A DNA stretch of 64,000 nucleotides from an uncultured Gemmatimonadales bacterium (GTDB lineage: Bacteria > Gemmatimonadota > Gemmatimonadetes > Longimicrobiales > Longimicrobiaceae). The stretch spans positions 288,001 to 352,000 of the forward strand of contig OY970303.1 of assembly GCA_963716255.1 (NCBI GenBank), in the 5' to 3' direction. The position numbers and the translations under genes were made by a program. Numbering within the stretch: position 1 is the first letter of the stretch; each line of letters starts with the position of its first letter. Under the pieces are notes generated by a model. That model made no database searches. It saw only the letters and a program-made list of their open reading frames with translations, and was not told the origin of the DNA. Below are positions 31,301 to 61,200 of the stretch, piece by piece.

Positions 31301-34300
31301 CGCCCCGTAGCACTCCGACAGCTCGCCCACCAGGACGACGGTGGACCAGCCGTCGCTGACGATGTGGTGGAGCGCGAAGAGCAGCGCCCACTCCTCCTCG
31401 TCCAGGCGGAGGAGCCGCACCCGCATCAGCGGCCCCGCCGCCAGGTCGAAGGGGCGCGTCATCTCCTCCTGCACCTGCCGCCGCACCTCCGCCTCGCGCG
31501 CTTCCGCGGGGAAGGCGCGCAGGTCGGTCACGGGGAGCTCGCGCGGCCCCGGCTCGCCCACGATCTGCACGGGCTCGCCGTCCACCGAGGCGAAGACGGT
31601 GCGCAGCGTCTCGTGCCGCCTGCGCAGGGTGTCGAAGCTGCGCTCCAGCGCGTCCACGTCCAGCCGGCCGCGCAGGCGCAGCGCGTACGGCATGTTGTAG
31701 GCGGGGCTCTCCGGCTCCATCTGCTGGATGAACCAGAGCCGCTGCTGCGAGAAGGAGACGGGGAGCGTGCCGCCGCGGGGGATGCGGCGCAGGGGGGGCG
31801 CCTGCGCGCCCACGCCCTCGCGCAGCGAGGCCTCCACCCGCTCGGCGAGCCCGGCGAGGGTGGGCGCCTCGAACAGGGTGCGCAGCGGCACCTCCGCCCC
31901 GAACGCTTCGCGGATGCGCGAGACCACGCGGGTGGCGAGCAGCGAGTGCCCGCCCACCTCGAAGAAGTTGTCGTGCGCGCCCACGCGCTCCAGCCGGAGC
32001 ACCTCGGCCCAGATCCCGGCCAGGATCTCCTCGGCCGGGGTGCGCGGCGCGGTGAAGCCGTCCTCCGTGGCTGAGCCCGACGCCGCGGGCGCGGGGAGGG
32101 CGCGCCGGTCCACCTTGCCGTTGGACGTGAGCGGAAGCGACTCCAGCACGACCACCACGCCCGGGACCATGTACTCCGGCAGCCGCTCCGCCAGGTGCCG
32201 GCGAAGCTCGGCGGCGGCGGGCGTGGCGCCGGCCTCGGGGACCACGTAGCCCACCAGGCGCGCGGCGCCGCCGGCGTCCTCGCGCACGGTCACGGCCGCC
32301 GCGCGCACCTCGGGGTGCCGCTCCAGCACGGCCTCGATCTCCCCCGGCTCGATGCGGAAGCCGCGCACCTTGACCTGGAAGTCCGTCCGCCCCACGTACT
32401 CCAGCTCCCCGTCCGCGCGCCACTTCACCCGGTCCCCGCTCCGGTACATCCGCGCCCCCGCCTCTCCCGAGAACGGGTCCGGGACGTACTGCGCCGCCGT
32501 CAGCTCCGCACGCCCCAGGTACCCCCGCGACACTCCCGCCCCGCCCACGTACAACTCCCCCGGCACCCCCACCGGCACCGGCGCCGCATTCGCGTCCAGC
32601 AGGTACACGCGCGCGTTGCCCACCGGCCGCCCGATGCTCACCGGCTCCCCCGGCCGCACCCGCGCCACCGTGGTGTTCACCGTGGCCTCCGTGGGACCGT
32701 AGTGGTTCCACAGCGCCACTCCCGGGAACGCCGCGAAGGTGCGCTCCGCCAGCTCCGCCGGCAGCGCCTCTCCCCCCAGCAGCACCGCTCGCAGCCCCGA
32801 CGGACGCGGCGCCTCTCCCGAGCGCACCAGCTCCAGCATCGCGCTCCACAGCGACGGCACCCCCCCGAACGACACCCGCTCGTGCCCGGAGATGGCCTCC
32901 AGCAGCGCGCCCGGGTCGCTCACCGTCTCCTCCGGGAGCACCCACACCGGCTCCCCCCGCAGCAGCGGCGGGAACAGCTGCCGCACGTGCGCGTCGAAGC
33001 TGAGCCGCGACACCAGCGGCAGCGCGAAGCCCTCCGCACCCAGCACCGTCTCGTCGAACCAGGCCAGGTAGTTGGACAGCCCGCCGTGGGTCACCAGCAC
33101 GCCCTTGGGCGTGCCCGTGGAGCCCGAAGTGTAGATGACGTACGCCAGGTTCTCAGGCGAGACGGAGATCCCGCTGGCGTCCGCGGAAGGGCCCCCACCC
33201 GGCTCGCTCAGGCTCGCCACCCTCCCCCAATTCCGGGGGAGGGATTCCTGACCCTCCGCACCGTCGTGATCCTCCATTTCCACGCGCACGACCGCGCCGG
33301 CGAACCCGTCGACGCGCGCGGCCAGCTCCGCGCTGGTCACGACGGCGGCGGCGCCGGCGTCGGACAGCATGAAGCGCAGGCGCTCGTCGGGGGAGGCGGG
33401 GTCCAGGGCGACATAGGCGGCGCCGGCCTTGAGGATGCCCAGCACGGCGACGACGGTCGCGGAGCCGCGCTCCAGGAGGAGGGCGACGCGGCCGTCCGGG
33501 CCGGCGCCGAGGGCGCGCAGGCGGCGGGCGAGGGCGTCGGCGCGGCGCTCCAGCTCGGCGAAGCTGAGCGTCCCGTCGGCGGCGACGACCGCGGGGGCGT
33601 CCGGGGTGCGCAGCGCCTGCCCGGCGATGCGCTCGTGGACGGGACGCGACAGGTCGTACGGGCGGGCGGTGGCGTTCCACTCCTCCAGCACCTGCCGCCG
33701 CTCGTCCGGGCTCATCAGCGGGAGGTCGGCGATGCGCTGGTCGGGGTCGGCGGCGATCCCGTCCAGCAGCGCGGCGTAGTGGGAGGCGATGCGCTCCGCG
33801 GTCGCGCGGTCGAACAGGTCGGTGGCGTAGGAGAGGCTGCCACGGATGTCGTCCGCCGTCTCCATCAGCGTGAGGATGAGGTCGTACTTGGCCGACTCCA
33901 TCCGCGCGCCGTACAGGCCGATCCTGAGGCCGTCCTCCGGCTGCGCCTCCGCCCCGGGGGCGTTCTGCAGCGAGAACATCACCTGGAACACCGGGCTGCG
34001 GCTCAGGTCGCGGTCCGGGGCCAGCTCCTCCACGATCCTCTCGAAGGGGAGGTCCTGGTGGGCGTACGCGCCGAAGGTCCGCTCGCGCACCTGCCGCAGC
34101 AGCTCGCGGAAGGTGGGGTTGCCGGACAGGTCGGCCCGCAGCGCCAGGGTGTTGACGAAGAAGCCGATCAGCGCCTCGATCTCGCTGCGGTTCCGGTTGG
34201 CGATGGGGGTGCCGGCGATCACGTCGTCCTGCCCCGCGTGGCGCGCGAGCAGCGCCTGCCAGGCGGCGAGCAGCGGCATGAAGAGCGTGGCGCCCTCCGC

Positions 34301-58200: not shown

Positions 58201-61200
58201 AGCGGGAAGTCCGAGGGCGTGCGGCCGCCCGCCCCCGGGAGCCGGCAGTGCGCCACGATGGCGCGCAGCGCGGCGGCGTAGCGCTCCGCCAGCGCTTCCA
58301 CCGTGGCGGGACGGTGGACCGCCGCGCCGTAGTGCCAGCGGACGCGCAGCCGGCCGTCCACGACGGCCGCGACCACGTCCAGCAGGTAGCGCCGCCGGGC
58401 GCCGGGGTGGCGCGTCGCGCCGGGCGCTTCGGCCGCGGGGCGGAAGAGCGCGTCCGCGCCGAAGGAGGCGTCGAGCTGTCCCTGGTAGTTGAAGCTCACG
58501 TCGGGGTCCACGGCCACGCCCGCGGCGCCGGCGAGGTAGCGGAGGATGCCGTATCCGATCCCCCGCCGCGGCACCGCGCGCAGCCGCTCCTTGGCCGCCA
58601 CCAGCAGCTCCCCCGCGTCCAGCGCCGGCCGGGCGTCCAGCCGCACCGGGAAGATCGAGGTGAACCACCCCGTCGTCCGCGACAGGTCCACGTCCGCGAA
58701 CAGCGGCTCGCGCCCGTGCCCCTCCACGTCCACCCGCACCTCGTCCGCGCCGGTCCACCCGCCCAGGGCGCGGGCGAGCGCGGCGAGGAGCACGTCGTTG
58801 GCCTGCGTCCGGTAGACGGGCGGCACCTCCACGAGCAGCGCCCTCGTCTCCTCCGCGGTCAGCTCCACGGTGACGATGCGCCCTCCGCCCTCGGGGTTCT
58901 CGCCGTGCAGGTCGCGCGGGAGCGCGGGGGCGGGCCCGGAGGCGACGCCGCGCCAGTACCCGGCCTCGGCGAGCGCCGCCGGGGACGCGGCGTGCTCCGC
59001 CAGGCGCTCCGCCCACGCCCGGAACGACGTGGTCTTCGGCGGCAGGCGGACCGGCTCGCCGCAGCGGCGCAGGCGGTACGCCGTCGCCAGGTCTTCCAGC
59101 AGCACCCGCCAGGAAACGCCGTCCACCGCCAGGTGGTGCACGCAGAAGAGCAGGCGGCTCCCCTCCGCGCCCAGGTCGAAGAGCACGACCCGGAAGACCG
59201 GCCCGGCGGCGAGGTCAAGGCTCGCCTGCGCGCGGTCCGCAGCCGCCGCGAGCGCGTCCGCCCGGCCCCCGGCGTCCACCCCCGCGAGGTCCACCCGCTC
59301 CACGGGCGCGGGATCGCCGGCCGGCGCGGTCCACTGCCGCCACCCGCCGTCCGCCTCCCGCGCGAAGCGGAGCCGCAGCGCGTCGTGGTGCCGCTGGAGC
59401 GCGTCCACCGCGCCGCGGAGCGCGGCAGAGTCCAGCTTCTCGCGCGGGGCGAGCATCCACGCCTGGTTCCAATGGTCCGGCCGCCCGTGGCGGTGCTCGA
59501 AGAACCAGCGCTGGACGGGAGTGAGCGGCGCCTCGCCGGTCACCTCGCCCTGGTCCGCGGCCGCGGCGACGTCGGTCCGGGCGGCGGCGGCGAGCGCCGC
59601 GAGCGATTGGTGGCGGAAAATCTGGTCCGGCGTGAGCCGCAGCCCGGCGGCGGCCGTCCTCGCCACCACCTGGAGCCCCAGGATGCTGTCGCCGCCCAGC
59701 TCGAAGAAGTTGTCGTGCGCGCCCACGCGCTCCACCCGCAGCAGCTCCCGCCAGATGCGCGCGAGCCCCGCCTCCGCCTCCGTCCGCGGCGCCACGTGCT
59801 CCGCGCCCCCCGCCGCACCCGCCTCCGGGGCCGGCAGCGCCCGCCGGTCCAGCTTGCCGCTCGGACCCAGCGGAAGCTCCCCCAGCACCACCAGCGCCGA
59901 CGGCACCATGTACTCCGGCACCCACCCCGCCAGGTGCGCGCGCAGCGCCTCCGCGTCCACCTCCGCCCCCCGCGCCGCCACCACGTAGCCCACCAGCCGC
60001 GCCCGCCCCCCGTCGCTCCGCACCACCACCGCCGCGTCCCCCACCGTCGCGTGCCGCCGCAGCGCAGCCTCCACCTCCCCCGGCTCGATCCGGAAGCCGC
60101 GCACCTTGACCTGCGCGTCCAGCCGCCCCAGGTACTCCACCTCCCCCGTCGCCAGCCAGCGCGCCCGGTCCCCCGTGCGGTACATGCGCGCGCCCGCCTC
60201 CGCCGCGAGCGGGTCCGGGACGAACCGCTCCGCCGTCAGCTCCGGCCGCCCGTGGTAGCCGCGTCCCACCTGCACCCCGCCGATGTACAGCTCGCCGGGG
60301 ATCCCCACCGGCGTCTCCCCCAGCCGCCCGTCCAGCACGTGGATGCGCGTGTTCGACACCGGCCGCCCGATCGGCACCGTCGGCTCGCCGGGCGCGCACG
60401 CGTGCCAGGTCACGTCCACCGCCGCTTCCGTCGGACCGTACAGGTTGTGCAGCTCCGCCCGCGGCATCCGCTCGAAGAAGCGGTCCCGCACCTCCGCCCC
60501 CAGCGCTTCGCCGCTGCACACCACCCGCCGCACGCTCCCGCAGCGCGCCGGCTCTCCCGCGTCCAGGAACGCCTGGAGCATCGACGGCACGAAGTGCAGC
60601 GTGGTGACCCCCTCCCGCTCGATCAGCTCCGACAGGTAGTGCGGATCCCGGTGCCCGTCCGGCTTCGCGAGCACCAGGCGCGCCCCCGCCAGCAGCGGCC
60701 AGAAGAGCTCCCACACCGACACGTCGAAGCTGAACGGCGTCTTCTGGAGCACCACGTCGTCCGCCGTGAGCCGGTACTGGCGCTGCATCCACAGCAGCCG
60801 GTTGACGACGCCGCGGTGCGCGTTCATCGCGCCCTTGGGCTGCCCCGTGGAGCCCGAGGTGTAGATGATGTAGGCGAGGTGGTCGGGGTCGACGGGAACC
60901 CCGCTGGCGTCCGCGGGGATGCCCCCACCCGGCTCGCTCAGGCTCGCCACCCTCCCCCGTTCCGGGAGAGGGGAATCTCCACGCTGACGATCCTCGCCCT
61001 CCGGCGTGTCGTTGTCGTGCTCCCCCTCCCCCCGTGCGGGGGAGGGGGCCGGGGGGAGGGGGGTCGCCGTGCCGTTCTCCCCCTTTCTCCCGCTCGCGGC
61101 GGAGAGGGGGCCGGGGGGAGAGGGGGCCTGCCCGTCGACGCACACCACCTCGCCCCCGAACTCCGGGATCGTCCCGACCAGCCGCTCCTGAGTCAACAGC

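Follow-up and report, generated by a model that had tools for sequence, protein, structure and literature searches.

Hairpin repeat modules of intergenic DNA stand in frame in the A2-A3 loop of nonribosomal peptide synthetase adenylation domains in a Longimicrobiaceae genome

How does DNA that forms palindromes between genes come to stand in frame, at the same place, in one enzyme domain after another? The question is raised by the window analysed here, a stretch of 64,000 nucleotides (bases 288001-352000) of the one-contig genome of an uncultured soil bacterium of the Longimicrobiaceae (G000; 8.42 Mb, 73% G+C, 96.7% complete). Its nonribosomal peptide synthetase (NRPS) genes carry hairpin-forming repeat modules, called a and b, in the loop between motifs A2 and A3 of their adenylation (A) domains. 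The answer that we consider reasonably probable is that the intergenic hairpin-repeat modules of this genome stand in frame in 54 of its 448 A2-A3 loops, where translation is predicted to yield a disordered loop and the modules are probably passengers that the enzymes tolerate.

Five NRPS genes composed of condensation (C), A and thiolation (T) domains occupy 26297..63998 on the reverse strand: 26297-35323, 35106-38339, 38490-51860, 51697-54981 and 55221-63998, the last extending past the window edge. In Pfam, PF00501/PF13193 are present in all five, and the matches in their proteins are solely Condensation, AMP-binding, AMP-binding_C and PP-binding. The loops were mapped with known A2 and A3 motif patterns and with those in the text of an earlier, sequence-only reading of this DNA. 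The A3 motifs of the window number ten and not nine, and thus six of the ten A domains are occupied. In the whole NRPS locus containing the window, the element is found in 14 of 24 A domains.

All six in-frame sites between A2 and A3 named in the sequence-only reading are present, with the repeat DNA placed by nhmmer, and all lie on the reverse strand. In gene 26297-35323, the loop of the first A domain holds module a with a remnant of the a-b spacer (33188..33248; nhmmer and in-frame flank test), and the peptide read there is QESLPRNWGRVASLSEPGGG. The four A domains of gene 38490-51860 carry, from first to fourth, the composite a+b (49725..49873), a+b (46398..46546), b alone (43185..43234) and a+b (39934..40081). 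The copies at 39.9 and 46.4 kb do belong to one recently duplicated module, as had been proposed, with a loop identity of 0.95 and flanks of 0.97/0.98. An A-domain loop of gene 55221-63998 holds a+b+b (60920..61124). The A2-to-A3 distance is 78-81 residues without the element and 99-142 in four element-bearing window domains, while the b-only domain at 43.2 kb has the native length of 80. The three intergenic copies named earlier are likewise present, none of them with a coding signal in both flanks: a at 13209..13267 on the forward strand, where neither flank has such a signal, a split by extra sequence at 19394..19478 on the reverse strand (nhmmer match 19434-19477), and b at 21220..21267 on the forward strand. 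As side observations, a perfect 24-nt overlapping palindrome at 19491-19532 adjoins the second of these copies, and a perfect 17-bp hairpin with a 2-nt loop is found at a gene end (23847-23882).

The similarity between inserts and extragenic copies goes beyond GC bias, since dinucleotide-shuffle, nhmmer and control-segment tests agree on it. The hairpin pattern CCCTCCCCC-N-GGGGGAGGG has 5 matches in the window, compared to 0.00 expected from dinucleotide shuffles. With nhmmer profiles built from the window copies, and whole-genome matches kept at E<=1e-3, 361 a and 288 b matches were obtained at 491 loci. At least five blastn matches outside NRPS A-domain regions were obtained for 60 of 448 loops but for 2 of 448 control segments of the same length taken 300 nt downstream. 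Among loops of at least 45 residues, 48 of 54 hold DNA with at least five such matches. No Rfam family matched the window at gathering score.

Modules a and b had been taken for separate subtypes, a distinction that does not hold. Since a is followed by b on the same strand at 119 loci, with a conserved spacer and a total length of mostly 120-160 bp, the two belong as modules to one mosaic repeat. This mosaic exceeds a+b, because in 96 of 302 intergenic a copies the conserved sequence goes on to the left with another module of about 60 nt; 17 of 36 A-domain copies also have the first 14 nt of this extension, read there as ADAS. The ends of the composite are pairable in some copies (CCCYCACCC...GGGTGAGGG) and variable among copies, and coding and intergenic copies show equal hairpin stability. 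The composite is present in all eight other genomes of the genus and in one of four other genera of the family, and it was not found in 8 genomes from two other families of the order.

As judged by a test of codon phase based on G+C at third positions (GC3), approximately 90% of the 491 loci lie outside reading frames. Under a test in which an open frame had to span the locus by 150 nt or more to either side and GC3 had to exceed 0.85 in both flanks, 43 of the 491 loci were strictly intragenic, and 42 of these 43 lie in the A2-A3 loop of NRPS A domains. A local codon-phase test of all 491 loci detected no coding flank at 331 and a single one at 110; of the others, 46 were in frame, 3 convergent and 1 out of phase. 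Six-frame translation of the whole genome yielded 450 A3-type motifs, and the stop-to-stop frames holding them (n=134) sum to 1.82 Mb or 21.6% of the genome. In the mapped loops, 54 of 448 A domains contain matches, and no copy was found in the remaining parts of the NRPS genes in these 1.82 Mb of reading frames. The sole in-frame copy found outside NRPSs is an a in the opposite orientation (G000:C1:3685371-3685425; L015 3372-3426), which sits in the linker between Hydantoinase_A and Hydantoinase_B of a 1292-residue fusion protein.

Within the loops, one orientation and one frame are common to 88 of the 91 module matches. All 40 a matches are antisense to the a-then-b orientation, 39 of them in one phase, and 49 of the 51 b matches are antisense and in one phase, while two are in sense orientation. 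In intergenic composites the frame used in the loops is open in 75 of 87 cases, and each of the remaining five in 31 to 64 cases; since other frames are often open, the absence of stop codons alone fails to explain the uniform orientation and frame. A 114-residue loop (A3 at 7508854 of G000) combines b in its usual frame with a in another one and with additional unrelated sequence, and indicates that other frames can be tolerated. The intergenic copies themselves have no orientation bias relative to transcription (128 vs 135). They are about 4.6 times more numerous in convergent than in divergent spacers (143 vs 31), as expected for elements tolerated at, or serving, the 3' ends of genes. A replication-strand cause of the fixed orientation was considered and rejected, as the intergenic copies show only a mild replichore bias and none relative to transcription.

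The copies in the loops belong to the same pool as the approximately 440 intergenic copies. Mean distances are 0.143 among A-domain copies, 0.156 between A-domain and intergenic copies and 0.148 among intergenic copies, and the nearest intergenic copy of an a is on average 1.5% away. The A-domain copies form no separate lineage and share their sub-variants with the intergenic pool. On a FastTree phylogeny of 444 A-domain cores, from which the insert was excluded and six rows with short or interrupted cores were left out, occupancy changes state many times, at least 38, compared to 52.7+-1.4 with shuffled labels. Of 79 occupied-loop pairs that are at least 80% identical, 71 have both flanking 95-codon segments below 75%, and loops up to 90% identical are found between A domains whose flanks are 55-72% identical. 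The elements are accordingly young in comparison with the domains that carry them. In aligned loops, high identity begins and ends at the edges of the element. Within five pairs of recent duplicates the loops are shared.

What a given loop contains changes more quickly than the species themselves diverge. In three sister genomes (G001, G006, G008), gene 38490-51860 is represented by orthologues that are 85-97% identical, and in all eight comparisons the loop content differs from that of G000 (module 1 in G006 and G008; modules 2/4 in G006 and G008; module 3 in G001, G006 and G008; with module 2 and its duplicate in G000 counted together). The loop is therefore rewritten at a rate above that of species divergence. 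The differences consist of other b variants, inverted b and two more repeat types, read as AVAGCSLFPVPC and ALSHS; the orthologues of the 49725..49873 loop in G006 and G008, for instance, hold other repeat content. Repeats of the AVAGCSLFPVPCSLS type and short tandem repeats of the ALSHS type also fill loops of G000 itself, near 383505, 7900554, 7894048 and 6521237. We rejected ancestral presence followed by loss in most domains as the main story, given that element-free loops have the usual length and pattern of A domains. Remnants of old elements were not apparent in loops of normal length either: 82 of 365 short loops had at least one blastn match outside NRPSs, compared to 128 of 365 control segments. 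Two other control segments (700 nt downstream and 450 nt upstream) were uninformative, as they matched conserved A-domain sequence that the mask did not cover.

Whole loop segments have been replaced without target duplication. The second A domain of gene 26297-35323 has an element-free loop (29940..30050, reverse strand) and had been regarded as an empty-site control for its sister at 33.2 kb. It does not serve as one, since its whole loop has been replaced: the two domains are 0.93 identical upstream, about 0.83 over the first 100 nt from A3 and 0.61 in the core, and the loop is an unrelated sequence of about 75 nt, which argues for replacement and not for an empty site. A second supposedly empty partner contains a decayed b copy, and loops with b alone retain the native length. 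Three alignments of paralogues and three sets of orthologues showed no target duplication. The Y1/RAYT transposase (PF01797) had no match in G000, whereas 6 of 14 control genomes were positive.

With 54 occupied loops in 39 kb of native loop DNA, the density in loops is 1.39 per kb, as compared to 0.20-0.52 per kb of non-coding DNA for the approximately 437 intergenic loci, a range obtained by taking the non-coding share as 10-25% of the genome (25% is the codon-phase upper bound and 10% an assumption). Occupied domains are also clustered: they are found in 15 of 35 NRPS loci (22.4+-1.9 expected) and form 18 adjacent pairs (5.8+-2.2 expected). When recent duplicates are excluded, similarity over the ten codons to the left of the loop is 1.20 times higher among occupied than among unoccupied domains; distant segments give 1.01-1.04. 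The density and the clustering imply more than random entry and filtering, namely local spread, sequence preference, or both. We propose that repeat DNA would enter a loop, or be renewed there, by homology- or break-repair-driven copying from other copies and not by cut-and-paste transposition, that it may spread locally between neighbouring modules, and that selection on the encoded peptide would retain only one orientation and frame.

A candidate source of breaks would be a DUF559 (Vsr-like) nuclease encoded between inverted a hairpins. A single gene of the genome matches DUF559 strongly (125 residues, E 3e-36; L016 1456-1833). Its start codon follows the end of an a copy by about 15 nt, and about 20 nt separate its stop from the beginning of an inverted a. 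This cassette (G000:C1:125111-125637; L016 1379-1905) lies in the spacer between an SDR-type and an enoyl-CoA hydratase-like gene; it occupies the same site in G001, G003, G004 and G005 and a different context in G008 (contig 247). Among 13 strong DUF559 genes in eight genomes of the genus, an exact a-type hairpin is found within about 110 nt on both sides in 9, on one side in 3 and on neither in 1. DUF559 falls into a group of PD-(D/E)XK nucleases together with Vsr mismatch endonucleases and a homing endonuclease of group I introns (PMC3424549, PMC12907096).

At the protein level, AlphaFold, given an alignment of nine rows taken from the domains of the window itself, produced a model of the A domain encoded at 38700-40634 with a mean pLDDT of 71.6. 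The modelled insert (residues 186-233) has a pLDDT of about 26 and no secondary structure, and it lies between strands 180-183 and 241-247, with flanks at 85-95. The model aligns with TycA (5n81_B) with a Z of 51.9 and a root mean square deviation (rmsd) of 2.2 over 393 residues, and with GrsA (1amu_B) with a Z of 49.9 and an rmsd of 2.5 over 502 residues; outside the insert, the predicted structure is that of a canonical A domain. The element sits in the loop before A3, which the sequence-only reading had taken for a tolerated surface loop and which is predicted to be a disordered surface segment. An excess of diversity at third codon positions is weak, the ratio of position 3 to positions 1 and 2 being 1.09 in coding and 0.70 in intergenic copies of a, and 1.47 and 0.97 for b. 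In the sequencing runs searched, the sampled words were recovered to a fraction of at most 0.22, and of at most 0.10 in RNA runs.

Several observations weigh against the view that intergenic repeats keep entering these loops as tolerated passengers, or against parts of it. A small number of seeds, with later copies descending from them, would explain the uniform frame and orientation no worse than independent entry followed by selection, and the passenger view does not account for the first seeding of an unoccupied loop. A clean filled/empty pair with exact junctions was not found. The intergenic and intragenic classes are those of a GC3-phase heuristic and not of a gene caller, and translation of the inserts as a Pro/Gly/Glu-rich peptide is deduced solely from intact frames of up to 14,745 residues. 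As to the nuclease, 5 of the 9 doubly bracketed DUF559 genes represent one orthologous locus, so the association with the repeat has few independent cases, and DUF559 genes are also present in related genomes where the repeat was not found.

A stronger version, in which the A2-A3 loop is an actively targeted and reusable landing pad, with candidate DUF559 breaks at hairpins and repair from other copies seeding and overwriting loops far faster than the enzymes diverge, is in our opinion possible but doubtful. Rather unlikely, too, is that one or a few ancient loop insertions spread purely by module duplication and gene conversion, with the likeness to intergenic copies arising from limited variation or occasional conversion. 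Such a history would account for the near-exclusive site, orientation and frame, for occupied domains clustering in few NRPS loci and adjacent modules, for the raised similarity over the 10 codons to the left of the loop, for the loops shared by five recent duplicate pairs and for some clustering on the tree (38 vs 52.7 changes). It is at odds with A-domain copies that form no clade of their own and contain the sub-variants of the intergenic pool, with high identity that stops at the element edges instead of running into the native flanks, with the 3 of 91 matches in another frame or orientation, and with orthologues that hold different modules, types c and d included. Selection for the inserts themselves, as a flexible loop with a function in the enzyme or as hairpins with a role in giant mRNAs (pausing, decay protection), is another reading, which we regard as quite improbable. 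The loop density above the non-coding one, coding hairpins as stable as intergenic ones, the uniform orientation relative to transcription in loops and the preference of intergenic copies for gene 3' ends (143 convergent vs 31 divergent) would fit such a role, but 394 of 448 A domains do without the element, unrelated repeats are swapped in among orthologues, there is little codon-position sign of peptide constraint, the insert is predicted to be disordered, and intergenic copies lack an orientation bias relative to transcription. The 73% G+C of the genome could suggest that GC-rich coding sequences are alike by chance or that the assembly has produced an artefact; the shuffle and control tests contradict this, genomes of the genus that were assembled independently have the same loops occupied, and reading frames of 3,000-14,745 residues are intact, which leaves such an explanation a negligible probability.

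The sequence-only reading had also suggested that shared inserts act as homology patches promoting recombination just upstream of the specificity-determining core, and this is the proposal that would have mattered most, as repeat-driven NRPS shuffling; we found no support for it. Under strict criteria (at least 95% identity on one side and at most 85% on the other, in 50-codon windows), breakpoints cluster in two places, the C-A linker and the A10/T end of the A domain. Eight were located at the loop, 7 between unoccupied domains and 1 in a mixed pair, so that an occupied domain is involved in 1 of 8. Pairs discordant between upstream and downstream of the loop include an element-bearing domain in 2 of 21 cases, where about 24% would be expected. 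Nearest-neighbour discordance across the loop was observed in 2 of 44 domains with the element and in 13 of 297 without it (Fisher p=1.0), and inside the core in 0 of 46 occupied and 0 of 305 unoccupied domains. With relaxed thresholds (0.90/0.80 and 0.85/0.72), peaks appeared both at the loop and at further conserved motifs; they were judged to reflect mainly uneven conservation and were not used. Recombination as such does take place here: nearest-neighbour discordance at A2|A3 is 4-14%, as compared to 0-3% inside the core, and the window pair at 33.1/29.9 kb drops from 0.93 to 0.61 at this point. These two domains belong to modules 1 and 2 of gene 26297-35323 (A3 at 33133 and 29935), a chimeric pair with an identity of 0.93 before the loop and 0.61 after A3. 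An A2|A3 recombination boundary has been published for other NRPSs (PMC8097286), and published exchange units often begin near A3 (Baunach et al. 2021, PMC8097286). A2|A3 is a general recombination boundary in this genome, to which the element adds nothing detectable in breakpoint, pair and nearest-neighbour tests of low power, and a role of the inserts as homology patches is very unlikely.

Two further observations concern the NRPS genes as such. The single-module C-A-T genes 35106-38339 and 51697-54981 (1077 and 1094 residues) flank the four-module gene and have identical A2-A3 segments; they look like a recent gene duplication. With 21.6% of 8.42 Mb in NRPS-like genes, the genome makes an unusually large investment in them.

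The loops constitute a natural experiment that marks an A-domain segment accepting 17-70 extra residues in dozens of contexts, which could be useful for engineering tags or domains into NRPSs. The differing loop content of sister species makes insertion, replacement and decay of intragenic repeats measurable, and the repeat-bracketed DUF559 gene is a testable candidate for the mover of a repeat family without RAYT. In searches of the literature on palindromic, repetitive extragenic palindromic (REP) or miniature inverted-repeat transposable element repeats in A domains, on Longimicrobiaceae NRPSs and on DUF559 and repeats, we found no description of the phenomenon.

The known systems with which it can be compared each share a part of it. 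Interrupted A domains, in which whole auxiliary domains are embedded between A2 and A3 (Labby et al. 2015, cited in PMC8097286), use the same permissive place as the repeat inserts, but they carry a folded enzyme domain, whereas the inserts described here are 17-70 residues of low-complexity repeat peptide predicted to be disordered. Acore exchange units (Baunach et al. 2021, PMC8097286) have boundaries near A3, and the first two modules of gene 26297-35323 show such a switch; the repeat itself was not associated with A3-near boundaries in our tests. Compared with Vsr/DUF559 nucleases, the small DUF559 gene between inverted repeat copies looks like a nuclease cassette with repeat ends, the link of its protein to the repeats being known here solely from gene position. 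REP sequences, bacterial interspersed mosaic elements (BIMEs) and REPINs (PMC3116915) are likewise high-copy, hairpin-forming and mostly extragenic mosaic modules that favour gene 3' ends. The repeat differs from REPIN-RAYT systems in that no Y1/RAYT gene was found in this genome, in its G/C-homopolymer hairpins with a fixed a-then-b order, and in having dozens of copies in reading frames.

The closest likeness is to the Rickettsia palindromic elements (RPEs), the analogy drawn in the sequence-only reading, which holds in one respect and fails in another. RPEs are described as dispersed palindromic repeats of about 150 bp that stand in frame in protein genes and add a peptide compatible with the fold (Ogata et al. 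2000, in PMC10969869), and an in-frame dispersed palindrome read as peptide is the feature common to both. The spread is not: RPEs occupy many unrelated genes (PMC10969869), while 42 of 43 strictly intragenic loci here fall in one domain family. Compared by description only, the present repeat further differs in occupying one loop of one paralogous family, in being mostly intergenic, in its turnover between sister species and in the replacement of loops. The notion of selfish DNA read as protein would in this way be widened from scattered Rickettsia genes to one heavily reused site, with 54 loops in a single genome.

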